Assembly (NCBI GenBank): GCA_964345045.1
Contig: CAYFPM010000001.1
Location: 44,215-108,214 of the forward strand
Origin: an uncultured Gammaproteobacteria bacterium
GTDB lineage: Bacteria; Patescibacteriota; Patescibacteriia; Magasanikbacterales; UBA922
Reading direction: 5' to 3'
Length of the DNA: 64,000 nucleotides
Shown here: positions 38,156 through 60,991 of the stretch, one piece after another
Layout of the letters: every line of letters starts with the position of its first letter
Numbering within the stretch: position 1 is the first letter of the stretch
Program-made: the position numbers and the translations under genes
The notes under the pieces: model-generated
What the model saw: only the letters and a program-made list of their open reading frames with translations
Database searches by the model: none
Told to the model about the DNA's origin: nothing

Positions 38156-38230
38156 CTCCCCCTATCAGGGGGAGTTAGAGGGGGTCTGGTAGACGATTTG
38201 ACCCCACCTAACCTCCCCTGATAGGGGAGG
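38156..38230. repeat. composite GC-rich palindromic element (CTCCCCCT-N4-AGGGGGAG family), intergenic copy
   Basis: ctccccctatcagggggag ttag agggggtctggtagacgatttgacccc ... cctcccctgataggggagg; same architecture as in-frame copy in queA. Confidence 0.7.
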
Positions 38231-38240
38231 AAAAGAGTAG

Positions 38241-38310
38241 TGAGTTGTGCAGGGTTCGAACCTGCGACCACCTCCGACAAGAGTCGAGGCTGCTCTACCA
38301 TATGACAATA
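38241..38310 (-). pseudogene. tRNA-like fragment (D-loop TGGTAGAGCAG and T-arm GCAGGTTCGAACCCTGC present, acceptor/anticodon stems do not close)
   Basis: could not fold a complete cloverleaf by eye; may be a degenerate or unusual tRNA. Confidence 0.3.
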
Positions 38311-38314
38311 TTTG

Positions 38315-38387
38315 TGCGCCCAGAGGGATTCGAACCCCCGACCGTTTGGTTAAGAGCCAACTGCTCTACCAACTGAGCTATAGGCGC
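38315..38387 (-). tRNA. tRNA-Lys (anticodon CTT)
   Basis: reverse complement GCGCCTATAGCTCAGTTGGTAGAGCAGTTGGCTCTTAACCAAACGGTCGGGGGTTCGAATCCCTCTGGGCGCA; anticodon loop CTCTTAA. Confidence 0.75.
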
Positions 38388-38522
38388 CTAGATTAATTAA
38401 ATATTGTCAACTGAGCTAACAACCCATATATTATGTACAAATTACGAATATTGTGAATTTACGAATTCTGCTATTTGAAAAATTCGCGCATTCGTATAAT
38501 TCGTAATTCGAACATCTATATC

Positions 38523-39284
38523 TTATCCAATTGGATCTTCTGGAGTTCGCTTTAGTATTTCCACTTTTGGACCTTTCCAACCTTTTTTGTTAAGGGCGGC
38601 TTCGGCAGCGGCTACTTGGGCTTCTTGCTTGCTACCACCTTCACCTTCACCAATTTTTTCTTTGTCTAGATAAACTCCAACCACAAATTTTTTGTCATGA
38701 TCAGGGCCACTTTCATTTAGGACTTTGTAGTTTGGAGTAATCCCAATAATTTCCTGAGAAGCTTCTTGAAAACGAGATTTGGGATCCATCCACAAACCTT
38801 TTTCTAAAACTTCTGGCAATTTGGTAATAATCCAGCGAGTAATAAATTGTTTGGATATATCCCAACCTTGGTCTAGATAGATAGCTCCGATCACCGATTC
38901 CATGACATTGGCCAAGATATATTCTCTAGCTTTTGTGCCGGCATCTTTGGATTCGCCGTGGCTTAGAAAAAGATATTCTTCCAAACCAATTTCATTGCTA
39001 ACCGCTGCACACATTTTGGCGTTGACCAAGGCTGCGCGCCAGTTGGTTAGTTCACCTTCTGGATTAAGATAATTTTCAAATAGATATTCTGTTACTACCA
39101 ATTCTAGAACAGCATCGCCAAGAAATTCTAGGCGTTCGTTGTGAGATAGAGGGAAGTCTCTATTTTCGTTTAGATAAGATCTGTGTACCAAAGCTTGAAC
39201 AAGGAAATCTTTATTGTTGAACACAATGCCGATTCTTTCTTCCAACTTGGCAAAGTTTTTTTCTGTATAAGCTGGTATAGTCAT
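38523..39284 (-). CDS. rnc: ribonuclease III
   Basis: ERLEFLGDAVLELVVTEYLF catalytic signature plus C-terminal dsRBD. Confidence 0.9.
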   Translation of the reverse strand: MTIPAYTEKNFAKLEERIGIVFNNKDFLVQALVHRSYLNENRDFPLSHNERLEFLGDAVLELVVTEYLFENYLNPEGELTNWRAALVNAKMCAAVSNEIGLEEYLFLSHGESKDAGTKAREYILANVMESVIGAIYLDQGWDISKQFITRWIITKLPEVLEKGLWMDPKSRFQEASQEIIGITPNYKVLNESGPDHDKKFVVGVYLDKEKIGEGEGGSKQEAQVAAAEAALNKKGWKGPKVEILKRTPEDPIG

Positions 39285-39365
39285 ATTTTTTCAGTCAGCC
39301 ATTTTCAGTATCTCTATATTTATACTATATAGGTACTAAAAGCGGGGGACTGTAATTAATAATAA

Positions 39366-41796: not shown

Positions 41797-41798
41797 GT

Positions 41799-42456: not shown

Positions 42457-43149
42457 ATGAACGCTATTATTCTTTGTGGGGGATTATCTACCAGATTGGG
42501 AGACATTACCAAAAGCATCCCTAAGATATTGCTAGATGTGGGTGACAGAAAAATTTTGGATTGGCAATTGGAAAAATTAAAAAGTACAGGTGTTACTACC
42601 GTTGTACTAGCTGCTGGGCATTTGGCCGAAGTTTTACGAGAAGAAGTTGGAGAAGAAAGAAATGGTATAAAAATGATTTATGCTGTAGAAGACAAAAAAT
42701 TGGGGACAGGTGGAGCTATCAAACACGCCATGGAATTTGTAGAAAACAAAAACGAGCCAACTATAATTTTGAATGGAGATATTTTGACAACAGTTGATTT
42801 GAAAGACATGTCCAGTTATCTAAAGCCAGAATCAGATGGAATTATTTTGGCCAGTTATGCTAGTGATGTAGCAAGTTATGGCACTTTGGAATACAATTCA
42901 GATTATCATCTAAAATCTTTTAAAGAAAAAGAAGGTTTGCATAAACCAGGTTACCAAAATGGTGGTATTTATATTTTTAATCAAAGTGTAAAAAAATATT
43001 TTCCACCTAGGGATACTTTTAGTATTGAGTACGATGTTTTTCCACATATGAAAGACTTGTATGTTTACGAGTCGGATAGAGATTGGATAGATGTAGGTGT
43101 GCCAGATAGATTGGAATGGGCTAGAGAAAATTGGGAAGTGTTTAAATAG
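42457..43149 (+). CDS. sugar-1-phosphate nucleotidyltransferase
   Basis: MNAIILCGGLSTRLGDITKSIPKILL N-terminal NTP_transferase signature. Confidence 0.8.
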   Translation: MNAIILCGGLSTRLGDITKSIPKILLDVGDRKILDWQLEKLKSTGVTTVVLAAGHLAEVLREEVGEERNGIKMIYAVEDKKLGTGGAIKHAMEFVENKNEPTIILNGDILTTVDLKDMSSYLKPESDGIILASYASDVASYGTLEYNSDYHLKSFKEKEGLHKPGYQNGGIYIFNQSVKKYFPPRDTFSIEYDVFPHMKDLYVYESDRDWIDVGVPDRLEWARENWEVFK

Positions 43150-43206
43150 TTCATGGCCAATAGCCAATGGCTAATAGTTATTGGTTCTTAGTTTTTATAT
43201 TATTTT

Positions 43207-44253
43207 ATGAATCAAAATTTATACAAATTAATTGGCGCGTTATTTTTGGTACTAATTTTGGCAGTACCGTTTTATTTTTATATTAGTATTTTTTCAAATA
43301 GTACTAGTGAAGAACAAATAAATTTTGAAGTAAAAAAAGGGGAGTCTGTTTCGGAACTATCAATAAGGCTAGAAGAACAAGGAGTAATAAAAAATGCTAA
43401 TTTATTTAGCAAATACGTTGCTTTTAAAAAATTAGATAGACAAGTACAAGCTGGAAATTTTGTAGTAGATCCGCCAGTAACTATTGCCAACGTAGCCAAA
43501 TCCCTAAAACAAAGAGCCGAGCAAGAAGAAAGATCTATAACAATAATTCCAGGTTGGGGTCTGCACGACATTGCAGCTTACTTTGCCAAAGAAAATATTG
43601 CCAAAGAAAAAGAAACTTATTCGCTGCTAGGTGAGCCGGCCAAAAAACCAACTATCCCAAAAATAAAAGCTTTGTCTAATTTGGATTTAAAAGTTTTGAA
43701 AGATAAACCGGTTGGAATTAGCTACGAAGGTTACTTGGCACCAGATACATACCGTATTTTTACCAATGCGACTTACCAAGAAATTTTGGAAAAACTAATA
43801 AAAGAAAGAGACAAACAGTTTACAGAAGAAATGTATGCCGATATAAAGAAATCAGGTAGAAGTGTTCACGAAATATTAACTATGGCAAGCATTGTCGAAA
43901 GAGAAGTAAGAGGCAAAAGAGACAAAGCCAAAGTTGCTGATTTGTTTTGGCGCCGTTATGACAGTGGTTGGGGATTGCAGGCAGACTCTACCGTGCATTA
44001 TATAGCTGGCAACAAAGATGGGGATTTTTTTACAACTAGCAAAGAGAGAGATATAGATAGCGAGTGGAATACATACAAATATGCCGGGCTCCCCCCAGGA
44101 CCTATTTCTAACCCAAGCTTAGAATCAATCATGGCAACTGTTTATCCAGAGCCAAATGAGTTTTGGTATTTTCTTACCACCTTTGATGGAGTGGTTAAAT
44201 ACGGCAGAAATTTAGACGAGCATAATGCCAATGTACAAAGATATCTACGCTAG
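43207..44253 (+). CDS. mltG: endolytic murein transglycosylase MltG (YceG-like)
   Basis: N-terminal TM, LAPDTYRIF and SIVEREV motifs. Confidence 0.75.
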   Translation: MNQNLYKLIGALFLVLILAVPFYFYISIFSNSTSEEQINFEVKKGESVSELSIRLEEQGVIKNANLFSKYVAFKKLDRQVQAGNFVVDPPVTIANVAKSLKQRAEQEERSITIIPGWGLHDIAAYFAKENIAKEKETYSLLGEPAKKPTIPKIKALSNLDLKVLKDKPVGISYEGYLAPDTYRIFTNATYQEILEKLIKERDKQFTEEMYADIKKSGRSVHEILTMASIVEREVRGKRDKAKVADLFWRRYDSGWGLQADSTVHYIAGNKDGDFFTTSKERDIDSEWNTYKYAGLPPGPISNPSLESIMATVYPEPNEFWYFLTTFDGVVKYGRNLDEHNANVQRYLR

Positions 44254-44340
44254 ATTATGTTGACAAAAAAGGTTTTTTAGAGTAAAAAAGTGCTTCGGCA
44301 TTTTTTTTGATAGAAAAGTATTTTGCTGTAAAATAAAATT

Positions 44341-45156: not shown

Positions 45157-45160
45157 AATT

Positions 45161-46294
45161 ATGAAAACAATAGATTTTGATTATAATTTACCAACAGAGT
45201 TAATTGCTCAAAAAAGTGTGGAACCAAGAGACCATTCTAGGTTAATGCTGGTCGATAAAAAAAATAAAAAAATTGAACACAAAAAATTTTTTGATATTGT
45301 AGATTATTTTAATAAAGGAGATCTAGTAGTGTGGAATAATTCCAAAGTTTTCAAAGCCAGACTACTTGGTAAGCTGGTTTCGGATAATAATGAAGAATTG
45401 AGAGATCACAAAAAACCAATGGAAATTTTTCTTGTTCGTCCCATGGAAAACTATGGTGTATGGCAAGCACTGGCCAAACCAGGCAAGCATGCCAGACCCG
45501 GCACCAAGATTCATTTTGCCAGTGGTTTTGATGCCGAGGTAGTAGTAAAGAAAAGAGATGGGACTATCTTAATCCAGTTTGATTATGATGCGGATAAAGT
45601 TCGTGAACTAGCAAATAGACATGGACACATTCCAATTCCGCCGTATGTAAAAGACGAACCGCACGAGCTAGAGATGTACCAAACCAGTTATGCCAGTCTA
45701 GACAAAGAAGGTTCGGTAGCCGCCCCTACAGCCGGCTTTCACTTTACTCCGGAATTAATTGAGAAGCTAAAAGCCAAGGGCGTAGAATTTGCCGAGGTGA
45801 CGCTACATGTGGGGTTAGGGACATTCTTACCAGTGAAGTCTGAGCGAATTGAAGACCACACTATGCACAGCGAGTGGGTAGAGCTAAGCAGTGAGACTGC
45901 CGAGAAGATAAATAAGGCCAAGAGTGAGGGTAGGAGAGTAGTGGCCGTGGGGACGACTACGGTGAGGACGCTAGAGGGGATTGCGAAATTTTCTCTCCCC
46001 CTAAGAGGGGGAGCTGGAGGGGGTCCGGATTCAGATAGACCCCCCTTTGTCCCCCCTGATAGGGGGGAGGTTGTCCGGCCCTACGTGGGAGACATCAACC
46101 TCTTCATCACTCCTGGTTTTGAGTTTCGGGTGATTGACGCCATGATTACCAATTTCCACCTGCCAAAATCTACCTTGCTAATGTTGGTAGCTGCTTTTGT
46201 GGGGGACAGGGAGTTTACTTTGGATTTTTATAATAAAGCAGTAGAAGAAAGATATAGATTTTTTAGTTTTGGTGATGGGATGTTTATTTATTAG
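45161..46294 (+). CDS. queA: S-adenosylmethionine:tRNA ribosyltransferase-isomerase, with in-frame GC-rich insertion
   Basis: MKTIDFDYNLPTELIAQ..PRD..RLM and ITNFHLPKSTLLMLVAAF; extra Pro/Gly-rich segment LPLRGGAGGGPDSDRPPFVPPDRGEVVRP. Confidence 0.85.
   Translation: MKTIDFDYNLPTELIAQKSVEPRDHSRLMLVDKKNKKIEHKKFFDIVDYFNKGDLVVWNNSKVFKARLLGKLVSDNNEELRDHKKPMEIFLVRPMENYGVWQALAKPGKHARPGTKIHFASGFDAEVVVKKRDGTILIQFDYDADKVRELANRHGHIPIPPYVKDEPHELEMYQTSYASLDKEGSVAAPTAGFHFTPELIEKLKAKGVEFAEVTLHVGLGTFLPVKSERIEDHTMHSEWVELSSETAEKINKAKSEGRRVVAVGTTTVRTLEGIAKFSLPLRGGAGGGPDSDRPPFVPPDRGEVVRPYVGDINLFITPGFEFRVIDAMITNFHLPKSTLLMLVAAFVGDREFTLDFYNKAVEERYRFFSFGDGMFIY
45995..46070. repeat. composite GC-rich palindromic element inserted in frame in queA
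   Basis: ctccccctaagagggggag ctgg agggggtccggattcagatagacccc ... cccccctgataggggggagg; near-copy of 38156-38230. Confidence 0.75.
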
Positions 46295-46410
46295 AAAACA
46301 TTGATTCCACAGATTAATAAAAGATTGCACTGATTTAAAAGTGGATAATTCCCCTCTAAAATTTGGGTAATAAGGAGTTATAGTTTTTTTCGATTCATCA
46401 TTTTGATTTT

Positions 46411-47560: not shown

Positions 47561-48856
47561 TTACATCCACTTTTTTTTCAAGTTTAAAAATTTGTTTTTT
47601 TCTATAGCTTCGCGCATTTCTTCCATAAGTTTGGTTAGGAAATGAAGATTGTGAATAGTGCCTAGTTTGTAAGCCAGCAATTCTTCGGCTTTGAAAAGGT
47701 GGTGCAAATAGCCTGCAGAAAAATTCTGGCAAGTATAGCAATCGCATTTTTTATCAATTGGTTTTTTGTCAGTTTTGAATTTGGCGTTTAGGATGTTGAT
47801 AGTATATTTTTTTCGTCTACCGAGTTGCCCCCCTCTCGCACTCGCTACGCTCGTGTCGTCTCCCCCTACAAGGGGGAGAGAATAAGGGCGTACATACAAG
47901 GTTCCGTTGCGGGCGATGCGAGTAGGCGAGACACAGTCAAACATATCAATCCCACGTTCGACTACCTCGAACAGGTCTAGTGGCGAGTGGCCTAGACCCA
48001 TGGTGTAGTGAGGTTTGTCTTCTGGAATGTGCGGCATAACCCAGTCTAAGATTTTTTTGGTAGCGGCCATGTTGTAGCCTATGCTCTCACCACCAATGGC
48101 AATGCCATCGAAATTTTGTTCGGAGATAAATTTGGCACTCTCGATCCTCATGTCCTTGTGCCCGGCGCCCTGCACAATACCAAATAGGAATTGTTTGTAG
48201 CCATGATATTTTTTATTTTTTTTATGAGCTTCGATAGACTCTATAGCCCAGCGGTGGGTTCTTTCTAGGGCTTCTTTAGTGTATTTCTCATCAGCCTTAT
48301 CTGGAGTACATTCGTCAAAAGCCATAATAATATCTGCTCCAATTTTGTGCTGAATATCTATAGAAGATTTGGGAGTGAATCTATGTTTCGATCCATCGAT
48401 ATGACTACGAAAATCTACTCCGTTTTCATCTATGCTTACGAGTTTGCTGTTGTTTGAAGCTTGTTTTTCCCCTTCGAATGACCCCCTCTGGCCTTCGGCC
48501 ATCTCCCCCTTGTAGGGGGAGAGATTTTTTCTTTCTTTCATCTCCATTTGTTTCCCGAGGGAGAAAACTTGGAATCCACCAGAGTCAGTCAAGATTGGAC
48601 CATCCCAGCCCATAAATTTGTGTAGTCCTCCAAACTTGGCAACGAGGTCTTCGCCTGGTTGCAAATGCAAATGATAAGTATTTCCGAGAATTATCTGCGC
48701 ATCTAGAGCTTGCAATTCATTAGGATCAAGAGATTTTACAGTGGCCTTGGTTCCCACTGGCATAAAACACGGAGTTTGGATTTCACCGTGATCAGTTTTT
48801 ATTACCCCAGTGCGGGCATTGGTTTTTTTATCTTTGTGTTTTATTTCGAAAAACAT
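47561..48856 (-). CDS. tgt: queuine tRNA-ribosyltransferase with two in-frame GC-rich insertions
   Basis: GVIKTDHGEIQTPCFMPVGT, DSGGFQV, CDCYTC zinc site; insertions of about 35 and 27 aa relative to canonical Tgt. Confidence 0.88.
   Translation of the reverse strand: MFFEIKHKDKKTNARTGVIKTDHGEIQTPCFMPVGTKATVKSLDPNELQALDAQIILGNTYHLHLQPGEDLVAKFGGLHKFMGWDGPILTDSGGFQVFSLGKQMEMKERKNLSPYKGEMAEGQRGSFEGEKQASNNSKLVSIDENGVDFRSHIDGSKHRFTPKSSIDIQHKIGADIIMAFDECTPDKADEKYTKEALERTHRWAIESIEAHKKNKKYHGYKQFLFGIVQGAGHKDMRIESAKFISEQNFDGIAIGGESIGYNMAATKKILDWVMPHIPEDKPHYTMGLGHSPLDLFEVVERGIDMFDCVSPTRIARNGTLYVRPYSLPLVGGDDTSVASARGGQLGRRKKYTINILNAKFKTDKKPIDKKCDCYTCQNFSAGYLHHLFKAEELLAYKLGTIHNLHFLTKLMEEMREAIEKNKFLNLKKKWM
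47826..47885. repeat. GC-rich palindromic element (core ctccccctacaagggggagag) in frame within tgt
   Basis: core hairpin CTCCCCCT-ACAA-GGGGGAG; encodes Pro/Gly/Arg-rich insertion. Confidence 0.7.
48478..48530. repeat. GC-rich palindromic element (core ctcccccttgtagggggagag) in frame within tgt, inverted relative to 47860 copy
   Basis: reverse complement of the 47860-47880 core; preceded by ggccttcggcc hairpin. Confidence 0.7.
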
Positions 48857-49446: not shown

Positions 49447-49525
49447 ATGATTAATTTTGAAAAAGAACTTAACAAAGAACCATGTACAACTCACTTCGTT
49501 CGTTTCCGTGGCAAGCAATTTCAAT

Positions 49526-51673
49526 ATGATTAGATTTGAAGAAGAGCTCAATAAAGAACAATTGAATGTGGTTCAGCATGGCGATGGGCCGTGTTTGGTT
49601 TTGGCTGGAGCAGGGAGTGGCAAGACCAGAGCTATTACTTACAGAGTAGCTTATTTGCTAGAAAAGGGTATTGCCCCCAAAAATATTCTTTTGGTTACTT
49701 TTACCAACAAAGCTGCCAAAGAGATGAAAGATAGGATAAGTCAGCTTATTGAGCGTAGACCCCCCCTAGCCCCCCCTTCGCAGGGGGGGAACTTAAGTTG
49801 GTCTGGGACGTTCCATCACATTGGCTATAGAATTTTGCGGCAATATGCACCACTACTTGGTTACAAAAATAATTTTAGTATTCTAGATAGTCAAGATAGT
49901 TTAGATTTAATTAAAATTTGTTTAAAACAAGAAGGAGTAAATAGAACCGAGCGTAGGTTTCCTTCGGCCAAAGTTTTGCTTTCTATTATTAGCTATGCCA
50001 GAAATGCCGAGACTACCATAGTAGATGTGCTAGACATGAAATACCCAAACTGGCTGGATCTCTCCGAAACTATTGGCAGAATTGCTGCCGAATACGACAA
50101 ACGTAAAAAAGAGGCCAATGCTATGGATTTTGATGATCTTTTAGTAAACACTTATTTGTTACTTTTGAAGTCCGAAAGGGTGAGAAAAAAATATAGTGAG
50201 CAATTTCAATATGTGCTGGTAGACGAGTACCAAGATACTAACAAGATTCAGGCTTCGATTGTAAAATTGTTTGCTTCGCATCACCGCAATATTTTGGTAG
50301 TAGGTGACGATGCTCAGAGTATTTATTCTTTTCGAGCCGCCGACATTCAAAACATTCTCGACTTTGAATCGCATTATCAAGATGCCAAAGTTTTTCGTTT
50401 GCAAACAAACTATCGTTCTACTCCAGATATTTTAGATGTAGCCAACCAAGTTATAGAAAATAACGAGAGTCAGTACAAAAAAGAATTAAAAAGTGTTATA
50501 GAAAATTTTACCAAACCAGAAGTTCATGCTTTTGCCGATAACCAAGAAGAAGCTCAATTTGTGGCCGGAAGAATTTTGGAATTACGAGACGAAGGAGTCG
50601 AATTAAACAAAATTGCTGTTTTGTTTCGCGCAGCTTTTCATTCGCAAGCACTCGAAGTAGAACTTACCAAGCGAGACATCCCGTATGAATTTCGGGGTGG
50701 CGTAAGGTTTTTTGAACGGGCGCATATAAAAGATGTATTGGCGTATCTTAAAATTTTTAATAATAGAGAAGATGAGATCGCTTGGAGCCGAGTTTTGAAC
50801 ATGCAAACTGGGATTGGGCCGGCCAGTGTTCAGAGGATTGTCAGTCAAATAAAGAGTTTTGATGTCATTTCGAGCCCAGAGGGCGAGAAATCTTTCCGAG
50901 AACAAAGTAGTCAGACAGAAAGATCTCTCGTCGAGTCTGACGACTCTCCTCGAGATGACAATTTTTTAGATGGTATTTCTGAAGTATTACCTGCCAGAGC
51001 CAAAATTGGTTGGAATGATTTTTTGCAAGTCTACGAAGCAATGCAAAATGAATTAGAAAAAAATCCAGCCCAATTAATTAGAGCAGTGACTAATTCTAAG
51101 TACCAAGATTACTTAGAAGCCGAATACCCAGATTATCGTGAACGTTTGCAAGATTTGGAACAACTAGCAATTTTTGCCGAGCGACAACCTGACCTTAATA
51201 AATTTTTGGCCGAAGCTAGTTTGCAAGAAAGTTATACTGCGGGACAGACCAAAGATGTAGAGACAGATGACGAAGAAAAATTAATTTTGTCTACTATTCA
51301 TCAAGCCAAGGGGTTGGAGTGGGAAGCTGTGTTTGTACTTAGTGTAGCGGCTGGCCAATTTCCTAGCGACAGATCCCTAAAAGAAGAAAAAGGGATAGAG
51401 GAAGAGCGCAGACTCTTTTATGTGGCCATTACTCGCGCCAAAAAGCAGCTCTATTTGTCTTATTCTCTCACTGGAAGTTTCGACAGTGCTTTGCAAGGGC
51501 CGAGCATATTTATAGAAGAGATAGACAAAGATTTACTAGACCACCATTTTATACAGGGCGGAACGGTATTTACTGATCCTTCGGACAGTGTAGACGACGT
51601 AGTTTATGAGCCATTCGAAGATGATCATTTTTCCAAAAAGAAGAGGCCGGGGAGTTTCTTAATCGACGTTTAA
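49526..51673 (+). CDS. uvrD: UvrD/PcrA-family ATP-dependent DNA helicase (ORF opens at 49457)
   Basis: VLAGAGSGKTRAITYRVAYLL Walker A, DEYQDTN motif II; contains small GC-rich in-frame insertion ERRPPLAPPSQGGNLS. Confidence 0.85.
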   Translation: MIRFEEELNKEQLNVVQHGDGPCLVLAGAGSGKTRAITYRVAYLLEKGIAPKNILLVTFTNKAAKEMKDRISQLIERRPPLAPPSQGGNLSWSGTFHHIGYRILRQYAPLLGYKNNFSILDSQDSLDLIKICLKQEGVNRTERRFPSAKVLLSIISYARNAETTIVDVLDMKYPNWLDLSETIGRIAAEYDKRKKEANAMDFDDLLVNTYLLLLKSERVRKKYSEQFQYVLVDEYQDTNKIQASIVKLFASHHRNILVVGDDAQSIYSFRAADIQNILDFESHYQDAKVFRLQTNYRSTPDILDVANQVIENNESQYKKELKSVIENFTKPEVHAFADNQEEAQFVAGRILELRDEGVELNKIAVLFRAAFHSQALEVELTKRDIPYEFRGGVRFFERAHIKDVLAYLKIFNNREDEIAWSRVLNMQTGIGPASVQRIVSQIKSFDVISSPEGEKSFREQSSQTERSLVESDDSPRDDNFLDGISEVLPARAKIGWNDFLQVYEAMQNELEKNPAQLIRAVTNSKYQDYLEAEYPDYRERLQDLEQLAIFAERQPDLNKFLAEASLQESYTAGQTKDVETDDEEKLILSTIHQAKGLEWEAVFVLSVAAGQFPSDRSLKEEKGIEEERRLFYVAITRAKKQLYLSYSLTGSFDSALQGPSIFIEEIDKDLLDHHFIQGGTVFTDPSDSVDDVVYEPFEDDHFSKKKRPGSFLIDV
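49757..49790. repeat. GC-rich palindrome cccccccttcgcaggggggg inserted in frame in uvrD
   Basis: 7-bp C/G stem hairpin inside otherwise AT-rich CDS. Confidence 0.6.
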
Positions 51674-54274: not shown

Positions 54275-54451
54275 ATGTCGAATACGTTTCAGGTCGAGGG
54301 GCACAAGCGCTGCGTGGTCAGCATCGTTGGATCTGCGGATCTGGGGGTGCCTACCGAGATCAAGTGCCTGGACTGTGGAAAGAAGGGGAATGAGGCTCAG
54401 CTCGAGGTCGAGCCCTGTCGAGAGGTCTCGAGCGAAGACGAAGCCGCTTGA
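54275..54451 (+). CDS. small (58 aa) Cys-containing acidic protein, GC-rich
   Basis: strong RBS aaggaggaa; C..CLDC..C pattern; followed by hairpin terminator 54488-54520. Confidence 0.4.
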   Translation: MSNTFQVEGHKRCVVSIVGSADLGVPTEIKCLDCGKKGNEAQLEVEPCREVSSEDEAA

Positions 54452-54586
54452 ACCAAGCCTACATTTTTCATCTTTCACCTTCGTCATTTGCCCGACCGCA
54501 ACAGCGAGTCGGGCACCATTCACAATTATATTTGCTACAAAGTATAATGGTGCAGTGGTAAAAGATTTGTGCTATTATCTAAAAAT

Positions 54587-55723: not shown

Positions 55724-55758
55724 TTGGTTGTGGGTAGTTGGTAGTGAGTAGATTTTGA

Positions 55759-55859
55759 GAGTCATCCTGACTCGCCGTGGCGAGGAAGGATCCCAGTGGT
55801 AGTCCAAAGAGATCCTTCGACTGCGTTCGTCCTTTGGACTCACTCCGCTCAGGATGACT
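55759..55859. repeat. nested-inverted-repeat MITE-like element, copy 2
   Basis: outer IR gagtcatcctga...tcaggatgact, inner IR gtccaaag...ctttggac, core cgaggaaggatcccagtgg shared with 41799-41878. Confidence 0.6.
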
Positions 55860-55895
55860 TTGCTTAACTCTTTCATTATTCCTTATTCCAATCAT

Positions 55896-56097
55896 TTGAC
55901 ACTCTTTTTCAAGAGGCATATACTAAAAGTGATCCTGGCAAATTTGGACGAATATTCATATTCTACAAACTAGCTATTATGGAATACCTATATCGTCTCG
56001 ATCCGTGGATTGAGATTGCGGTTATCCACCTATTTTATAGGGATAGCGAATAACGTCCGGCTTGGATCATCAAAAAACAGCTAAAAGGCTGTTTTTT
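55896..56097 (+). promoter_or_regulatory. promoter (TTGACA-17-TATACT) + 24-codon ORF MEYLYRLDPWIEIAVIHLFYRDSE + intrinsic terminator, followed by second promoter TTGATT-16-TAGTAT at 56110-56137
   Basis: same promoter/short-ORF/terminator layout as the three downstream attenuators, but peptide not strongly biased (3 Tyr, 1 Trp). Confidence 0.35.
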
Positions 56098-56167
56098 GTT
56101 TTTTCTATTCTTGATTTTTTATCAATTTATGCTAGTATCAATTTCGCAACAACGGTGTTGCTAAAGA

Positions 56168-57772
56168 GTGAGGTTTGTCGTGAAAGTTTTGAGAGAAGTA
56201 GCAAGTGATATTGGTGGGCTCGTTTCGGTGGTGAACCGTGATACGGTTCGCCAATTCGCGCCGAACGATGGCGGCAATGTGTCGCCTATCGCCATGGAGT
56301 GGAGTTCCTTCTTGAGAGGGACGAGTGCCGACCAGGACTTGATCAAGCTGTGTAAACGTAACCAGGTGTGGCAAGTCATCGTGGTCACGCTCCCCGTGAA
56401 TACCTCCTACCTCGAGTTGGTTCGGGGGAGCGAGTTCGAGGGGGCTGACGTCGAGGAAATCTCCAATATGAATGGTGGGTTTGTCCACTACGTCCTGGTT
56501 CGGGCCAACGAGGGGCCGGCCGGCCCCATGAGCGTGGCAATCGGGGGCGATTGCCTGCGCCCAGAGGCCACCTTGACCGAGGTGTTCGAGAGAGCCTCGC
56601 TCTTGGCCACGGCCATGAGAGCAAAGGCCAGGTCGTTTTTGCCCAGTATGCCCGGCTTCCACGCCGGCAAAAAGGGAGCCCTACTCCTCGTCGACCGAGA
56701 TGGCGAGCGCGTGGTGCTGAGCAATCCCTCGGCCATGGCACTCTCGGCACCGGCCATGGTGCTTGGAGTGGGGTTTGCCAACCGACTACGCGTAGAGAGC
56801 TGTGCTGCTTGGGCTAGCCGCTATCGACTACCGCTCGGGGTTTTGTCTCCGGATTCTCTCTCCCCGGACGTGGTTACGGGAGGAGGGTGGACTCGGCTTG
56901 CCCAGGCATTCCGCTACTACGGGCTTGACTCTCGTATGGCCACCTGCCAGCCGGGCAAGACGCCGAATCCCTCGTCGGTGCCCACTGGCCAAGGTGTAGC
57001 CACGGCTGCTCTAGAAGTGGCCAAGTGGCTGCGGGAGTCGGGTAGAGTCCCGCAGGGCGAGCCGATTCGGGTGCTTGTCGAGGCTGCTGGCGCAGTGACG
57101 CAGGGCATGTTCCCACTGCTGCTAGAAGAAGGATTGGTGAAACCCGAGTACCTCACCTTCTACGACCCTAGCAGAGAGGCGATCGCCGTGATCGAGGCTC
57201 TGGTACCCGGCTGCCAAACGCTCTGTCGTTCGAACGATGTGGCACTCAGCAAGTTGGCCAACAAGACCTTCGATATCTTGATCAACAATGGCCTGGGCAA
57301 CCACTTGGGTACGCCAAAGCATATGGAGCACTTGGGAAGGATGGTTAGGTCTGGAGGACAGTTGGTGGTCTTGGGTGGAGCCAACAACATCATCAAGTGG
57401 GACAACCCGGCACTCAACTTGCCTCTCGTCATGGCTGAACGAGGAATTCAGGTGATCCCCGATACGGCTGTGTCGGGCGGTGGTTGGACCTTGGCCTTGG
57501 CTGGCCAAGCTGCCGAAGTGGCCGGGGTTGACCCGAGCAAATTGGCCAACCCGGTCAGTTCGTTTGTGTGTCGCTCGGTCTCGAGGAGAATTCAATCTGC
57601 CCTTGTCGCCTTCGGCGAGGGTGGTGGCGACCACCTCTGGAAGATCGTCTCGGAGCAGATGGAAGAGGCCGCTCCGTCGCTCGACCTGGTTCTCCCCGAG
57701 GACGAGTGGGCGGCGGCTGTCGATCCGAGAGACTTCCTGCGAGCGATAGGTGTGTCGCTCCAGGGCGAGTAG
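56168..57772 (+). CDS. Glu/Leu/Phe/Val-dehydrogenase-family (amino-acid dehydrogenase-like) protein, highly divergent; alternative GTG start 56180
   Basis: VVLGGANNIIKWDNPALNLPLVMAERGIQVIPDTAVSGGGWTL aligns with family block EGANGPTT..A..IL.ERGI.V.PDILANAGGVTVS; canonical GxGxxG replaced (VEAAGAV). Confidence 0.45.
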   Translation: MRFVVKVLREVASDIGGLVSVVNRDTVRQFAPNDGGNVSPIAMEWSSFLRGTSADQDLIKLCKRNQVWQVIVVTLPVNTSYLELVRGSEFEGADVEEISNMNGGFVHYVLVRANEGPAGPMSVAIGGDCLRPEATLTEVFERASLLATAMRAKARSFLPSMPGFHAGKKGALLLVDRDGERVVLSNPSAMALSAPAMVLGVGFANRLRVESCAAWASRYRLPLGVLSPDSLSPDVVTGGGWTRLAQAFRYYGLDSRMATCQPGKTPNPSSVPTGQGVATAALEVAKWLRESGRVPQGEPIRVLVEAAGAVTQGMFPLLLEEGLVKPEYLTFYDPSREAIAVIEALVPGCQTLCRSNDVALSKLANKTFDILINNGLGNHLGTPKHMEHLGRMVRSGGQLVVLGGANNIIKWDNPALNLPLVMAERGIQVIPDTAVSGGGWTLALAGQAAEVAGVDPSKLANPVSSFVCRSVSRRIQSALVAFGEGGGDHLWKIVSEQMEEAAPSLDLVLPEDEWAAAVDPRDFLRAIGVSLQGE

Positions 57773-57899
57773 AGCGACTGCCTGGCTCCGGCCCCTAGTC
57801 TCTTTTTAGGCCAGGCGCGACACCAATTTTTGTTCTTTTTTGTTGCGGCGAGCCTAGATTTTACCTTTGGTATATCTGGGCTCGTTGCACACACTCATC

Positions 57900-58059
57900 T
57901 TGACAAGAAGCAGAGATTTGTGTATATTAGTTTTAATCTTATGAAAACAAATATCCACAACTTCTTTTTCTTTTCTTTCTTTATCCCGCCAAAGAGTCGT
58001 GGTGTTTTGAGTTAATGCAAATTAAAATCAAGATTACCCCGACTCGTCGGGGTTTTTTG
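57900..58059 (+). promoter_or_regulatory. Phe-rich leader-peptide attenuator: promoter TTGACA-17-TATATT, near-leaderless ORF MKTNIHNFFFFSFFIPPKSRGVLS (57941-58015), intrinsic terminator 58036-58059
   Basis: 6 Phe codons in a 7-codon run (TTC TTT TTC TTT TCT TTC TTT); alternative pairing gagtcg(57998)/cgactc(58042) could act as antiterminator. Confidence 0.6.
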
Positions 58060-58167
58060 TTTATTCGGGTTTGGCGAAAGGTGATTAGACTTTTCGCTAA
58101 CCTCGAAGCCATAGTGGCTGAGGGGTTGAGACAATTTTTTCGCGAAAGCGAGAGAGGACAATAGACA

Positions 58168-59019
58168 ATGAAGAGTGAGCGAGAGTTTCTTGCCCAATAC
58201 ATGGACGGACCGGAGCATCGGCCAGACTGGGCTGGACATTCTGCGTTCGAGCTCGAAGGTCAGTTTGCCTTGCGTGGTGGCAATACCAACACCCAGCTGG
58301 TCTACCCGGTTGGACATTTGGTCTACAATGGCTTGATGAAAAGCTTCCCAAATGATCAGGAGCGCTTTAGCCCAGAGTTCAGCAACACTCAGGTGGAGCT
58401 GAACACCGGTGCTTGTGCAACCCCCGATCTGACGCTGGCAAAATTGCTCGAGCTGGTGGGGAAGATCAACCAGGTCGCTGGTCGTCACAACTTCCAGTTC
58501 GTGGATCACGAGTTCATCCCACTCAACGTGTGGGTTCCCGAGCAGGTATCACCGCTGGTGCCCCGCTACCAGCAGTTTGCCAACGATCCAGCCAACGTCG
58601 AGCGCGTGCCGCTGATGCACCGGGTGGCAGCGGCTCAGGTGCAGTGGGGCTGCGCCGATCCGGAGGAGCGTTTGGCACTCTTGAACGCCCTCACCACCGA
58701 ACTCGGTACCATGGAGAGCTTGGGATGGATCGACCCTGGTCGCAAGGCCGCGTTCGAAAAAATCCATGCCGGTTGGTACCCGCCTCCCTTCGACACTTGG
58801 AGTCGGTTTTACGAGTACATCCGAAGTCACCAAGATGGCGTGGCCATGATCGAGAGCCCGGCTCTGTACTACGCAGCAGTGCGTCCTCACCACGTGTACA
58901 GCACTGTCGAGCTCCGGCTCCCCGGCGCTACGCTCGATCCGGAGCGCTTGTTCCAGATTGTGTCGTTCGTGGCCGAGGTGTACAGCCAAGTCTGTAGGCG
59001 ACGTAGTGTAGCTGTCTAG
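58168..59019 (+). CDS. GCS2-family (glutamate-cysteine ligase family 2 / carboxylate-amine ligase) paralog, short form
   Basis: N-terminal AFELEGQ (E-x-E) and C-terminal STVELRLPGATLDPERL resembling YbdK TVEVRVMDTP block; middle HVHVG/LSAASP blocks not recognised. Confidence 0.4.
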   Translation: MKSEREFLAQYMDGPEHRPDWAGHSAFELEGQFALRGGNTNTQLVYPVGHLVYNGLMKSFPNDQERFSPEFSNTQVELNTGACATPDLTLAKLLELVGKINQVAGRHNFQFVDHEFIPLNVWVPEQVSPLVPRYQQFANDPANVERVPLMHRVAAAQVQWGCADPEERLALLNALTTELGTMESLGWIDPGRKAAFEKIHAGWYPPPFDTWSRFYEYIRSHQDGVAMIESPALYYAAVRPHHVYSTVELRLPGATLDPERLFQIVSFVAEVYSQVCRRRSVAV

Positions 59020-59136
59020 TCCCCCCCGAAGCATTCCTGCCCCACAAGAATGCTTCACCCCTTCCCTTTGTACAAAAATAATTTTGTATAGAGAAAAGAG
59101 GATTCTATTTTAAAAAGGAGATTATGCACATTTTGA

Positions 59137-59300
59137 TTGACAGGAAAGTAGAATTTGGATAATATCTAAATATTATGAAAAATAAGCGCAACATTCTGCT
59201 ACTAAGCCTGCTAGCTCTAGCCCCAGAGAGTGGTGATGTTGTGTTATCTGCCTAAGCAAAAACACATATTAGCAACACCGCTCATCTGCGGTGTTTTTGT
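59137..59300 (+). promoter_or_regulatory. Leu-rich leader-peptide attenuator: promoter TTGACA-17-TAATAT, leaderless ORF MKNKRNILLLSLLALAPESGDVVLSA (59175-59255), intrinsic terminator 59275-59300
   Basis: 6 Leu in 8 codons, four of them rare-looking CTA; terminator caccgc tcatct gcggtg ttttt. Confidence 0.6.
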
Positions 59301-59368
59301 TTACTTTGTCGAATTAAGCTTGGACTGAGTAGAGTAAAACTCATTCAGTTCAGACCGATTCTGACAAT

Positions 59369-60694
59369 TTGATTGGACGCTGCGTTGCAGCAAGGAGAGA
59401 AAGCCCCATGGCAACCCCGTGGACTACAGAAAACCTTCAAACCGCTGGCCGAGATGCACTTGCAAATTTGCTGGCGGAGAGTTCGCGAGCAGTTGCCAAG
59501 GCCTCAAATTCTGGTTGGATGGCTTTCGAGATGGAAGCCTCTCTGACCAAACTTCGCATTCCTGATTTGGCTGGGGTCTGGCCTGAAGTGAAGAGGGCTG
59601 ACGAGGTAGGTGTGGTCGTGGACGAGTTTCAAGACTACATGATCGAAGGCGTCCCTCCGCGTGACGCTGGAATCGTGGACGCGATGGGACTTCGTAGTTC
59701 GATCCTAGATGTAGCAGAGGCTATGGTCGCTGCTTGCGACAAGGCTGGCGTGCGCCTTACTCCCATTGCTCACCCTGATTCTTGGGGGGGGAAGCGGGAT
59801 ACCAAGATGCCTCAAAAGGCCGACCACCAGCGCATGGTTCGAGACACCATGCCGGCGGTTGGCTTGGGGGCTATTGGGGCCTCGCTCCAGCTCCACTGTG
59901 CCCACCCCTGCAACATCACCGAGGACAGATACTGGCGTACCCTCTTGCTCCTCCAGCAGCACGCGCCGCTCCTCTTGGCCTTGTCGGCCAACAGCCCCAA
60001 GAGCGGTAGCATGATTCATGGCAGCGTTCGGTATCTGCTTAGCCGATCGGTTTGGTCATTCCAGCCGTACTTCTGGCAGAGCTACGAAGAGTTCGTGGAT
60101 CATGTGCATGCACTTGTCCAGTACGGCAGCATCACCGGGCCGCACAACCTGCACGGTTGGGTCAAAGCCTGTGTCGGTTCGATCGAGCAACGTATCTGCG
60201 ACATTCCCGGTACTGTCCAAGAGATCTGGACGCTCTGTGCTCTGATGCGCGCTTTGGTGCAGTACTGCTACGAGCAGGCAGCTGACCCCAATGGATTCCT
60301 TCTTCAGGGAGATATTGGTCGTGATCAGCTGCTCTTGGCTCTGGAGCAGGCGGCCACCTTTGGCCTTTCCGACATGCAGGATTGCCGAATCCAAAGCCCG
60401 TGGGAAGGTCAGCGCGTCAAGCTCTACGATCTGTTCATGGAGCTCGGCAATCGCGTCGGAGATATCATGACGGATCAAGGGGCTGACTGGGAGAGGCAGT
60501 ACCTCTTCGAGCATATGCTCGCCGATCAGAAATGCGGCGAGAACGGAGCCACCCGGTTTGCGCGTTGGCACGAGCAGCACGACGGCAACATGACCAGGGT
60601 GGTGGAGGCCGCTAGCCGGCACTTCGGGCAGTCTCTCGGAGAGGCGAAAAAATCTCTGTCTGCGATGCAGCCAGATCAAGTCGTGAATCAATAG
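59369..60694 (+). CDS. GCS2-family carboxylate-amine ligase (glutamate-cysteine ligase family 2)
   Basis: LQLHCAHP (cf. HVHVG), LLALSANSPKSG (cf. LSAASPYMQG), SIEQRICDIPGT (cf. TVEVRVMDTP). Confidence 0.55.
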   Translation: MIGRCVAARRESPMATPWTTENLQTAGRDALANLLAESSRAVAKASNSGWMAFEMEASLTKLRIPDLAGVWPEVKRADEVGVVVDEFQDYMIEGVPPRDAGIVDAMGLRSSILDVAEAMVAACDKAGVRLTPIAHPDSWGGKRDTKMPQKADHQRMVRDTMPAVGLGAIGASLQLHCAHPCNITEDRYWRTLLLLQQHAPLLLALSANSPKSGSMIHGSVRYLLSRSVWSFQPYFWQSYEEFVDHVHALVQYGSITGPHNLHGWVKACVGSIEQRICDIPGTVQEIWTLCALMRALVQYCYEQAADPNGFLLQGDIGRDQLLLALEQAATFGLSDMQDCRIQSPWEGQRVKLYDLFMELGNRVGDIMTDQGADWERQYLFEHMLADQKCGENGATRFARWHEQHDGNMTRVVEAASRHFGQSLGEAKKSLSAMQPDQVVNQ

Positions 60695-60890
60695 TTCCTT
60701 TTGTGTAGTTAGCCATAGTTTTGGAGGCTGGCCCACTACACTCCCTTCCTTTTGCACAAAAGTTATTTTGTATAGAAGAGAGGTATAAATTAGTTTTCAC
60801 GCTGGCTCCATAGTCCCAGAGGTCTATGGAGCCAAATTGCCACAATACGGCTCCACAGGGCTACGCCACTATGGAGCCAGCATAGTAGTT

Positions 60891-60991
60891 CCTCCCCTAT
60901 AAGGGGAGGCTAGGTGGGGTCAAATCGTATACCAGACCCCCTCCCCGATGCTTTGATCGGGGCAGGCCAACTCCCCCTATTAGGGGGAGAG
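60891..60991. repeat. composite GC-rich palindromic element (CTCCCCCT-N4-AGGGGGAG family), long variant, just upstream of Ile-leader promoter
   Basis: cctcccctataaggggagg ... ggggtcaaatcgtataccagacccc ... ccccgatgctttgatcgggg ... ctccccctattagggggagag. Confidence 0.7.

Follow-up and report, generated by a model that had tools for sequence, protein, structure and literature searches.

The E. coli repeat BoxC, which belongs to a known but poorly understood bacterial class, is the same element as the potential intrastrand triplex (PIT) and TMECO (Holder et al. 2015, PMC4666352, citing Hoyne/Maher 2000 and Bachellier). A sequence pattern for TMECO has been published, and triplex formation has been observed in vitro by CD and NMR; in E. 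coli cells, the triplex was not detected by DMS footprinting (PMC4666352). In E. coli MG1655, TMECO has been reported exclusively from intergenic sites, and the published search for it allowed loops of 1–6 nt (PMC4666352). Of 5426 E. coli genomes, 5416 contain a 37-nt motif built to this design, at a median of 17 sites each, and one E. coli locus carries a tail-to-tail dimer of the kind described below.

Palindromic repeats inserted in frame in housekeeping genes are represented by Rickettsia palindromic elements (RPEs) and intragenic REPs (Di Nocera et al. 2013, PMC3733652). They add 20–30 residues, are sometimes inserted twice per gene and occur in UvrD/Rep-type helicases and tRNA-acting enzymes, among other hosts. 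These families carry a GTAG or CGTC tag or an RPE consensus, and many are linked to genes for a REP-associated tyrosine transposase (RAYT). REP doublets, known as REPINs or BIMEs, comprise two inverted units with a short spacer that form a larger hairpin and are thought to be moved by RAYT. In yeast mitochondria, GC clusters and “byp” translational-bypass elements are short GC-rich palindromes spread across an AT-rich genome, including its coding regions; a byp element disrupts the frame, and the ribosome passes over it.

The window analyzed here, a stretch of 64,000 nt from the AT-rich genome of a member of Candidatus Magasanikbacteria (CPR), contains nine units over six loci. On one strand, each unit consists of a homopyrimidine C-rich arm, a loop of 3–4 nt, a homopurine G-rich arm, a second loop (loop 2) and a purine-rich G-tail; the sequence CTCCCCCTATCAGGGGGAGTTAGAGGGGGT is an example. 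The G-tail repeats the purine arm in mirror order, with G opposite G-C pairs and A or T opposite A-T pairs. Loop 2 is either 3 nt long (often TTA) or a mini-hairpin of 12–27 nt with a GAA/GNA loop, and pairs of units arranged tail to tail give palindromic composites of ~77–100 nt. The units, their host genes and one variant are as follows.

22681..22708, plus strand: variant with reversed strand order (G-tail GGGGGT, G-arm AGGGGG, C-arm CCCCCT), read by eye, 6 triads
38156..38185, plus strand: triplex-motif unit CTCCCCCT atc AGGGGGAG tta GAGGGGGT; its pyrimidine/purine hairpin is 8 bp long, and the mirror tail gives no triad mismatches; left half of an intergenic dimer
38201..38230, minus strand: triplex-motif unit CCTCCCCT atc AGGGGAGG tta GGTGGGGT; right half of the dimer at 38156
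45161..46294, plus strand: queA host gene (E 4.5e-98 to 1vky; PF02547)
45995..46024, plus strand: queA dimer unit 1, a triplex-motif unit with the predicted translation LPLRGGAGGG
46039..46068, minus strand: queA dimer unit 2, TCCCCCCT atc AGGGGGGA caa AGGGGGGT, predicted coding-strand translation RPPFVPPDRG
47561..48856, minus strand: tgt host gene (E 1e-103 to Z. mobilis TGT; PF01702)
47828..47879, minus strand: tgt long-form unit (insert 2, ~47816-47878, 21 codons), a hairpin with a 22-nt loop 2 and tail AGAGGGGGG
48481..48522, minus strand: tgt long-form unit (insert 1, ~48467-48535, 23 codons), a hairpin with a 12-nt loop 2 and tail AGAGGGGGT
49457..51673, plus strand: uvrD/pcrA-type helicase host gene (E 4e-106 to PcrA)
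49759..49789, minus strand: uvrD short-form unit CCCCCCCT gcga AGGGGGGG cta GGGGGGGT, antisense to the gene, predicted translation RPPLAPPSQGG
60891..60920, plus strand: triplex-motif unit CCTCCCCT ata AGGGGAGG cta GGTGGGGT; left half of an intergenic dimer in a GC-rich block
60936..60989, minus strand: long-form unit with hairpin CTCCCCCT/AGGGGGAG and tail GAGGGGGT; its 27-nt loop 2 contains the hairpin CCCCGATcaaagcATCGGGG

A mirror tail was present on exactly one side of all nine pyrimidine/purine hairpins in the window, eight of which showed no triad mismatches. A relaxed scan of the window found no units beyond these nine (shuffles gave 0.1); the scan of the source genome covered 64 kb plus 10 kb. 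Three-way covariation was evident from arm/tail pairings that include AGGGGGAG with GAGGGGGT, AGGGGAGG with GGTGGGGT, AGGGGGGA with AGGGGGGT, AAGGAGAGGGG with GGGGTGAGGTT and AAGGGAGGGAG with GAGGGTGGGTT. At 38201..38230, the A/T position of the tail moves along with the A of the arm. In a set of 111 hairpins with 52 distinct asymmetric arms, none chosen by the search pattern, the mirror rule gave a perfect fit for 81 and at most one mismatch for 100, compared with 23 and 58 for a direct-repeat rule and 6 and 39 for shuffled arms.

The order of C-rich arm, 3–6-nt loop, G-rich arm, loop of ~3 nt and mirror G-rich tail is shared with BoxC/PIT/TMECO, as is the triad rule (C-G-G with T-A-A or T-A-T), and a TTA loop 2 is common to TMECO type A and four window units. 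Both sets of elements are multi-copy and dispersed, form tail-to-tail palindromic dimers and have no associated transposase. Judged by sequence, it is likely that the window elements belong with BoxC/PIT/TMECO among the class-II (purine-motif) intrastrand triplex repeats, are non-autonomous and dispersed, and have DNA as their spreading unit. In a single-stranded unit, the two arms would pair as a hairpin, after which the G-tail could turn back to occupy the major groove as a third strand; such a triplex may form in vivo. The intergenic dimer at 38156-38230, which lies between tRNA-Arg and a tRNA fragment, gave a fold of −23.9 kcal/mol (z −4.5) when the whole 87 nt were treated as DNA.

Several features nevertheless set the window elements apart from E. 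coli BoxC. The host is a CPR bacterium with an AT-rich genome, the arms are CTCCCCCT/AGGGGGAG where E. coli has CCCTCNCCC/GGGNGAGGG, and four of the six loci lie in frame in coding sequence, whereas TMECO has been reported only between genes in E. coli MG1655. Three units have a structured loop 2 of 12–27 nt, which lies beyond the range of the published search and would be missed by it. Unlike BoxC, the window family also includes one copy, that in queA, conserved at orthologous positions across genomes.

The original prediction, a single family of GC-rich palindromic repeats located both intergenically and in frame in tgt, queA and uvrD of an AT-rich CPR genome, was borne out. The core hairpin that it gave, with an N4 loop, has no match as written; the actual core, CTCCCCCT-N3-AGGGGGAG, has five exact copies (38156, 45995, 47860, 48503 and 60971) and recurs with three mismatches at 49771. 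The motif count is above chance, with 0.15 core copies expected from shuffles and 11 occurrences of CTCCCCCT alone against 1.39 expected. The third, mirror-repeat G-tail had been overlooked. Related hairpins were present at 38212, 46050, 49770, 60891 and 22688, and the proposed composite architecture, which measures ~77 nt, was found at 38156-38230 and 45995-46068. A third composite copy lies on the opposite strand at 60891-60989, and positions 38178-38232 and 60889-60943 are 95% identical across 55 nt in inverted orientation. Because the asymmetric G-tail shows the strand, the two tgt copies, thought to be in opposite orientations, can both be placed on the minus strand, which is the coding strand of tgt.

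Comparison with solved structures from other lineages revealed two extra segments in Tgt and one in QueA, and UvrD has ~9 extra residues ahead of the TFH motif; the Tgt, QueA and UvrD segments are all missing from PDB homologs. The tgt and queA segments are also missing from the closest ortholog locus (L002), where protein identity is 86% for Tgt and 83% for QueA, and the window differs from this locus by 69 nt, 63 nt and a net 45 nt. The coding copies are thus insertions, as had been proposed. None of the four shifts the frame or introduces a stop codon, so simple read-through would be enough, in contrast to the frame-breaking byp elements of yeast. Within tgt, loop 2 of the insert 1 unit bears a GGCC-GAA-GGCC mini-hairpin, and loop 2 of the insert 2 unit contains a 21-nt module (module X, 47837-47857). 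AlphaFold2 assigned pLDDT values below 50 to Tgt residues 110-137 (insert 1) and 326-348 (insert 2), and both segments are predicted to be disordered.

The position of the insertions varies among relatives. In one related genome (L125), a hairpin-X-tail element occupies other Tgt loops in another frame and encodes STRAKRVREGS as opposed to the DDTSVASARGG of the window, and in another (L127), three identical hairpins lie in three Tgt loops. That the same element is found in different Tgt loops and frames indicates that the unit of spread is DNA and not peptide. Element identity between genomes is 82–90% (45/55 nt; 27/30 nt by eye), compared with 65–68% for the host genes. A different variant of the element is present in the same UvrD loop of L171, and a coding copy in L123 is decaying. 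The elements had been described as unusual, which applies to their location in coding sequence; the hairpin and tail design itself is common, occurring in >100 genomes of many phyla, and the element is common in Magasanikbacteria Tgt and QueA orthologs.

From its presence or absence and its different sites in orthologs, we infer that the element has been copied to new places by some mechanism and that, in Magasanikbacteria, it landed in both intergenic DNA and coding sequence. Coding copies would survive only when they lengthen the gene by whole codons and fall in a surface loop that tolerates them, and the survivors would be read through as disordered segments rich in Pro/Ser/Leu and then in Gly/Arg/Glu. 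No transposase or other mobilizing enzyme was seen near the elements, and neither a consistent target-site duplication nor an end tag of the units was found.

Orthologous copies of the queA dimer are present in at least six genomes (the window and L170-L174), with identical codon boundaries. In the arms and tail of unit 1, synonymous third positions are invariant at 7/7 sites (window and L170-L172) versus 40/192 in the remainder of the gene, while the dimer loops and spacer drift. In L174, a coordinated +1 nt change affects the C-arm, G-arm and tail. A translated dimer signature was present in 19 of the 120 closest QueA orthologs, and the nearest neighbor was also a carrier in 11 of the 19, so that carriers cluster by relatedness. 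At least this dimer is old and vertically inherited, with arm and tail nucleotides held constant beyond the need of the protein, which suggests that the nucleic-acid fold itself is under constraint. This conservation could instead reflect gene conversion templated by other copies in the genome or a role at the RNA level, rather than selection for a DNA triplex.

These data bear on the possibility, tentative but compatible with the triplex-repeat explanation, that the elements are host-beneficial and cis-acting, with the triplex or hairpin fold selected in queA, tgt and uvrD and beside tRNA genes. Such elements might pause replication or transcription, mark a protein-binding site, or tune mRNA stability or translation. 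Arm and tail constancy at synonymous sites, the three-strand change in L174 and the clustering of carriers are as this explanation would have it, and loop inserts are ~5 times as frequent in Tgt and QueA orthologs as in PGK orthologs. It is weakened by the lack of the element in the closest relative and most orthologs, the differing loops, frames and orientations of the copies, and the decay of some of them (L123, and queA unit 2 of L172). In addition, E. coli PIT elements acted as neither promoters nor terminators and left polymerases unaffected in vivo (PMC4666352).

A resemblance to Rickettsia palindromic elements had also been noted. The likeness holds for behavior, in that both are in-frame palindromic repeats of housekeeping genes with similar hosts, insert lengths (20–30 residues) and occasional double insertions, but the mirror G-tail places the window elements with BoxC/PIT/TMECO. 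Compared with RPEs by description, they differ in having no tag and in adding a third, mirror-repeat segment to a homopurine/homopyrimidine hairpin. Like REPINs, they occur as two inverted units with a short spacer as well as singly, but the unit is three-stranded rather than a simple hairpin and no RAYT was seen. It is unlikely that they are REP/REPIN- or RPE-type palindromes moved by RAYT or another Y1 transposase that targets hairpins in single-stranded DNA. UvrD/Rep helicases and tRNA enzymes are among the known hosts of intragenic, in-frame REPs and RPEs (PMC3733652), module X also occurs in REP-like hairpins that flank RAYT in the metagenome contigs L161 and L148, and in L125 an IS200-type Y1 transposase lies 5.5 kb away from tgt. 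Nevertheless, no conserved GTAG or CGTC tag marks a fixed unit end, and, except in L161 and L125/L126, no Y1 transposase was found in the window or in ~1 Mb of hairpin-carrying loci. The RAYT-flanking repeats have no mirror tail and are not pyrimidine/purine hairpins, and E. coli BoxC is itself without any transposase association (PMC4666352).

It is very doubtful that Pro/Gly/Arg-rich loops were selected for Tgt, QueA or UvrD function, with DNA palindromy as a by-product. Inserts do recur in the same Tgt and QueA loops of many Magasanikbacteria, and RNA contact by R/G-rich peptides would be plausible. However, one DNA element yields unrelated peptides in different frames and orientations, and near-identical copies lie in intergenic DNA. 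Third codon positions of arms and tail are invariant while loop-encoded residues of the queA unit vary across genomes (R/P/S/S, A/V/A/V and G/R/R/V), and CCC and GGG codons are retained in genomes of 35–39% GC. An assembly or chimera artifact at GC-rich hairpins is effectively refuted: nothing favoring it was found, independent assemblies from NCBI, Logan and ENA give the identical sequence (0 mismatches over 13,379 nt with Logan for 43135-56513), reading frames are intact, and orthologous copies occur in six genomes from separate projects.

The variant at 22681..22708, located between tRNA-Leu and the RNase P RNA gene, is probably related to the triplex-repeat family as its weakest member.

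For PGK and each of the three host proteins, the nearest homologs bear the name Candidatus Magasanikbacteria or Patescibacteria, and the background GC content is 34-39%. The host genes are listed below.

queA: 45161-46294, plus strand, host gene
tgt: 47561-48856, minus strand, host gene
uvrD/pcrA-type helicase gene: 49457-51673, plus strand, host gene

Comparison with solved structures revealed two extra segments in Tgt (approximately residues 105-136 and 323-349), one in QueA (approximately residues 278-306) and about nine added residues ahead of the TFH motif in UvrD. That these segments are insertions, as the original prediction held, was borne out by their absence from both the solved structures and the closest relative, L002 (L-numbers denote DNA loci fetched from related genomes or metagenomes), which shares 86 and 83% protein identity in Tgt and QueA, respectively, and 76-79% nucleotide identity. 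The window and L002 differ in length by 69 and 63 nt in tgt and by a net 45 nt in queA. The reading frame was also rightly described as unbroken, all insertions being multiples of three with no stop codons; their translation would yield the peptide stretches LSPYKGEMAEGQR, SLPLVGGDDTSVASAR and LPLRGGAGGGPDSDR. An AlphaFold2 model of Tgt showed a confident core, with pLDDT values below 50 and no secondary structure at residues 110-137 and 326-348, so that the Tgt insert sites are predicted disordered loops. Four of the six loci are clustered in 3.8 kb spanning queA, tgt and uvrD, and the adjoining 10 kb upstream are free of units.

In the sets of 120 closest orthologs, 50 Tgt and 53 QueA proteins had internal inserts of at least 8 residues, compared with 10 for PGK, the single control protein; loop inserts thus occur in roughly 40% for Tgt and QueA versus 8% for PGK. 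The window and L171 both have a unit in the UvrD loop, of different variants and offset by a few codons, as would fit independent insertions into a single tolerant loop.

In each of the nine hairpins of the window, a homopyrimidine arm on the 5' side pairs perfectly with a homopurine arm on the 3' side over 8-9 bp, enclosing a loop of 3-4 nt. Each carries, on one side only, a G-rich tail ending GGGGGT(C). The tail is the mirror of the purine arm, with G set against G-C pairs and A or T against A-T pairs, and this rule is kept by all nine hairpins (eight with no mismatches and one with a single mismatch). The C-rich arms in the window are CTCCCCCT, CCTCCCCT, TCCCCCCT and CCCCCCCT, an example of a full strand is CTCCCCCTATCAGGGGGAGTTAGAGGGGGT, and the corresponding arm and tail pairs are given below.

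Purine arms and tails of the window units
G-arm AGGGGGAG, tail GAGGGGGT
G-arm AGGGGAGG, tail GGTGGGGT
G-arm AGGGGGGA, tail AGGGGGGT
G-arm AGGGGGGG, tail GGGGGGGT

The second loop, between purine arm and tail, is 3 nt long in six of the nine units (TTA twice, CTG, CAA and CTA twice) and 12, 22 or 27 nt in the other three, each of which contains a mini-hairpin within this loop, namely GGCC-GAA-GGCC, CCCCGAT...ATCGGGG or the 21-nt module X (GACACGAGCGTAGCGAGTGCG). On paper, module X can be drawn as the fold CAC-GA-GC-GNA-GC-GA-GTG.

The hairpin core had originally been given as CTCCCCCT-N4-AGGGGGAG, a pattern with no matches in the window; the true loop is N3. Once the loop was set to 3 nt, the five listed copies (38156, 45995, 47860, 48503 and 60971) were all exact matches, and a sixth, looser copy was found at 49771. 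The expectation for the N3 core from dinucleotide-preserving shuffles was 0.15, which upholds a motif count above chance, and for the 8-mer CTCCCCCT by itself the count is 11, with 1.39 expected. A scan for GC-rich perfect hairpins recovered the related stems at 38212, 46050, 49770 and 60891, as predicted, together with one at 22688 of opposite arm order. The two tgt copies had been assigned opposite orientations; the side on which the tail lies shows both to be on the minus strand. A relaxed scan of the window found no further units, and block shuffles gave 0.1.

The composite of ∼80 nt proved real at both sites originally noted (38156-38230 and 45995-46068) and consists of two units placed tail to tail, with the tails pairing as a central stem. 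A third composite, in inverted orientation, lies at 60891-60989, and the stretches 38178-38232 and 60889-60943 share 95% identity across 55 nt. The family is therefore dispersed and multi-copy, with three of its six window loci being tail-to-tail dimers. An assembly artefact is excluded because window positions 43135-56513 are identical in an independent Logan assembly and the ENA assembly is identical across its overlap.

A pyrimidine/purine hairpin flanked by a mirror purine tail is the hallmark of purine-motif intrastrand triplexes and places the window elements in the class and architecture of BoxC, the class-II motif of Escherichia coli also named PIT or TMECO. The published TMECO pattern is CCCTCNCCC-N3-6-GGGNGAGGG-N3-GGGNGAGGG, with TTA as one of two common types of second loop (Holder et al. 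2015, PMC4666352). CD and NMR show that the E. coli strand in isolation folds into a highly stable triplex, the triplex is undetected in vivo, and TMECO-type motifs are present in >260 genomes, have no associated transposase and are tied to local genomic instability (PMC4666352). Purine-motif triplexes do not form in RNA (PMC4666352), and the relevant molecule would thus be single-stranded DNA. A 37-nt motif, written for this analysis after the TMECO design, was found in 5416 of 5426 complete E. coli genomes at a median of 17 places per genome, and one E. coli locus has a tail-to-tail dimer like those of the window.

Anatomy and dimer form are thus alike, but the arm sequences differ, as the window arms do not match the TMECO sequence pattern; those of the locus L127 (CCCCTCTCC.../GGGGTGAGG) are nearer to it. 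The window elements share the class and design of BoxC and form a different sequence subfamily. Unlike BoxC of E. coli, they reside in a CPR bacterium, and four of the six loci lie in frame within genes (queA, tgt twice and uvrD), whereas TMECO is reported to be always intergenic in E. coli MG1655 (PMC4666352). Some window units also have a long, structured second loop of 12-27 nt, in contrast to the 3 nt of TMECO; given that the published triplex search restricted this loop to 1-6 nt (PMC4666352), such finders, with loops of ≤6 nt, miss the long form.

A family restricted to CPR bacteria had been expected. This was not borne out by a search of a species-genome collection with the bare hairpin CTCCCCCT-N3-AGGGGGAG, in which the matches listed came from many phyla, including Alpha-, Beta-, Gamma- and Deltaproteobacteria, Chloroflexota, Bacteroidota, Verrucomicrobia, Planctomycetes, Nitrospirota, Firmicutes, Actinomycetota, Gracilibacteria, Magasanikbacteria and others. 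The first impression that these multi-phylum matches were noise was overturned by the common tail in their flanks: among the matches listed, a mirror tail ≤30 nt away was perfect in 103 of 141 hairpins and had ≤1 mismatch in 128, compared with 1 and 17, respectively, in control windows 100 nt further off.

Covariation was assessed on 111 hairpins with 52 distinct asymmetric arms, taken from all fetched loci and not chosen by the search pattern. The mirror rule held perfectly in 81 of these 111 and with ≤1 mismatch in 100. Watson-Crick pairing of the tail with the C-rich arm would need a direct-repeat tail, a rule that fits far worse (23 perfect and 58 with ≤1 mismatch); shuffled arms gave 6 and 39. 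This three-way covariation is the main argument, at the level of sequence, that conservation acts on the three-strand relation itself.

A dimer in queA is present in six genomes, that of the window and those of L170-L174, whose QueA proteins are 67-71% identical to that of the window. Its codon boundaries, frame and orientation are alike in all six, and the spacer motif CAGATAGA, found in both the window and L171, speaks for one insertion in a common ancestor. Within the L170-L174 loci (4-21 kb), the queA units are the sole triplex motifs, except for the UvrD-loop unit in L171. Third-position conservation was assessed in four genomes (the window and L170-L172) at codons with identical amino acids. 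In the first unit, third positions were invariant in 7/7 codons, as against 40/192 (21%) in the rest of queA, and the positions of its two loops varied freely. In L173, all three strands have changed together (CCTCCCCCT/AGGGGGAGG/GGAGGGGGT), and the L174 variant CTCCCCCCT/AGGGGGGAG/GAGGGGGGT is a coordinated +1/+1/+1 that keeps the frame. Unit 2 too differs in all three strands, being TCCCCCCT/AGGGGGGA/AGGGGGGT in the window versus CCTCCCCT/AGGGGAGG/GGTGGGGT in L170 and L171. Of the 120 QueA orthologs nearest to that of the window, at least 19 have the translated dimer signature, LPLxGGxxGG...PxxRGG, and they group according to relatedness.

Neither the closest relative nor the majority of orthologs carry the dimer, and in L172 unit 2 is in decay, so the constraint on the queA dimer, though real, is not universal; gene conversion from other copies may have contributed. 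Because the coding-embedded copy shows synonymous-site conservation, protein and nucleic-acid constraint can be separated codon by codon. A cis role beneficial to the host is an alternative account to be set beside these observations.

Copying of the element to new sites is supported by element identity combined with presence or absence among close relatives. Elements are 82-90% identical between genomes (45/55 nt and, counted by eye, 27/30 nt), compared with 65-68% overall, and 43-46% at third codon positions, for the host genes. The locus L123 has a decayed copy at the site of the second tgt insert of the window (∼47816-47878).

RAYT-mediated mobility of the REP type (RAYT, REP-associated tyrosine transposase) is a second alternative. 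Intragenic REPs and Rickettsia palindromic elements (RPEs) are closest to the window elements in behaviour and are documented in UvrD-type helicases and tRNA enzymes. The originally proposed likeness to RPEs stands as regards in-frame insertion into functional ORFs at permissive sites; such likeness in behaviour does not speak for kinship. The tags that define REPs are lacking in the window elements: GTAG or CGTC tetranucleotides occur in some copies at scattered, inconsistent positions and not at a fixed palindrome end, unlike in the GTAG/CGTC-tagged class. In tblastn searches with the RAYT of L161 and the IS200 TnpA of L125 as queries, no Y1 transposase was detected in the 64-kb window, nor in the hairpin-bearing loci other than the query sources L161 and L125/L126, which argues against such an enzyme as mobiliser. 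More generally, neither an insertion in progress nor a target-site duplication, an end tag or a gene for mobilisation was observed. A MITE is disfavoured by the lack of a consistent flanking direct repeat (AGTT at one locus and chance-level repeats of 2-4 nt elsewhere) and of any insertion sequence in the window. Viral contigs scanned with the composite and module X patterns gave no match and hence no sign of a phage vector. Rfam returned nothing at gathering thresholds for the window and 20 related loci; below threshold, miRNA matches over the dimer (E ∼0.2) were at chance level. A literature search, of incomplete coverage, found no account of such elements in CPR/Patescibacteria or of triplex motifs in coding sequence.

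Protein-level adaptation is the remaining alternative, and other Magasanikbacteria Tgt orthologs do carry inserts in the same three loops. The hairpin-X-tail element of the second tgt insert of the window also occurs in L125, in two other loops and another frame, where its peptide is STRAKRVREGS, as against DDTSVASARGG in the window. In L127, the hairpin CCCCTCTCCTTTACAAGGAGAGGGG is present three times, identical and each time with a tail, in three Tgt loops. What spreads is the DNA, not the peptide.

These results establish the three-part anatomy, membership of the BoxC class, dispersal as DNA, insertion in frame, the reading of several frames and one copy conserved at the nucleotide level. 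In the proposed mechanism, the purine-rich strand, once exposed as a single strand (as at a replication fork or in the course of repair or transcription), would form the hairpin with the tail added as its third strand. This fold would underlie both copying and conservation; selection would filter coding copies by frame and loop tolerance, and those retained would be translated as disordered Pro/Gly-rich loops. A wider joint reading, which we regard as rather unlikely, is that the three-strand pattern is under purifying selection in living cells, with triplex repeats forming a pan-bacterial class of structured DNA that has a real in-vivo fold and serves both spread and host roles. Coding copies such as the queA dimer would then be retained cis-acting elements and not junk, and second-loop modules such as module X, present in repeats beside a RAYT gene too, would be parts exchanged across phyla, hinting at an undiscovered single-stranded DNA enzyme that recognises them.

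In the ∼30 years since BoxC/PIT repeats became known, neither a function nor in-vivo evidence of the fold has emerged. Three-way covariation over dozens of arm variants, together with synonymous conservation in a coding copy, provides an evolutionary handle on in-vivo relevance, and the interest of coding-embedded, orthologously conserved copies is that they make the in-vivo relevance of intrastrand triplexes testable. Core enzymes of very small CPR genomes also appear to have gained new surface loops repeatedly from a DNA repeat. For annotation, Pro/Gly-rich low-complexity segments and ortholog length variation in CPR proteins are traceable to these repeats.

Module X (GACACGAGCGnAnCGAGTGCG) recurs in metagenome loci (L161, L148, L135, L147, L151 and L156). 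On contigs of 44-46% GC it occupies the loop of REP-like hairpins of an unrelated kind (CCGTAGGT...ACCTACGG), and on contigs of 57-68% GC the second loop of triplex motifs with different arms (14 of 39 matches). In L161, one of the contigs of 44-46% GC, a RAYT-type Y1 transposase gene at 513-1034 adjoins the module X hairpin. L125 contains an IS200/IS605-type Y1 transposase gene (PF01797; 4155-4592, minus strand) 5.5 kb from tgt; its tgt carries three triplex units, and none flank the transposase gene.

Window positions 38233-38300 (minus strand), directly between tRNA-Lys(CTT) at 38314-38387 and a triplex dimer, resemble the 3' two-thirds of a tRNA (TGGTAGAGCAGCC...GGTTCGAACCCTGCACAACTCAC); uncalled by ARAGORN and Rfam, this stretch may be a truncated tRNA gene or an integration-site remnant. 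Between queA and a Vut_1/YhhQ-type transporter gene lies a GC-rich stretch of 168 nt (46456-46623) with a strong hairpin (GACGACCGGAGAC...CCTCCGGTCGT) that is not a triplex motif, and in this stretch is an ORF of 63 aa without a Pfam match (∼46515-46706, minus strand). A block of 53-56% GC at 56100-62620, within the 34-39% GC genome, has one triplex dimer in an intergenic gap and encodes three paralogs with weak matches to GCS2 (glutamate-cysteine ligase family 2) and a 534-aa ORF without a Pfam match. Two further GC-rich genes, a 379-aa ORF without a Pfam match (18222-19361) and a helicase with ResIII, Helicase_C and HA domains (35176-37761), look foreign too.

Two small PF05635 (23S_rRNA_IVP/bAvd) ORFs flank the nucleoside diphosphate kinase gene, one at 51779-52156 and one after ndk (3328-3684 and 4358-4735 in the coordinates of locus L001). 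bAvd-like proteins are frequent companions of diversity-generating retroelements. No reverse transcriptase was seen near these ORFs. A link of the triplex elements to such retroelements, considered because of the nearby ORFs, was rejected for want of any template/variable repeat relation among the elements. The RNase P RNA match at 22832-23315 (minus strand) is 484 nt long against a 367-position model, and an AT-rich palindrome at 23062-23159 possibly represents an extension by insertion. A GTAAGCCTTGTAAGC-like motif in tandem-like runs at four intergenic places (21723, 53177, 53588 and 63912) is a repeat family distinct from the triplex units. Finally, the locus L045, labelled Lysobacteraceae, contains eight tailed pyrimidine/purine hairpins within 8 kb. 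Its GC content of 31% is far from that of the labelled taxon, and the locus is probably a CPR-like contig of very high unit density that was binned wrongly.
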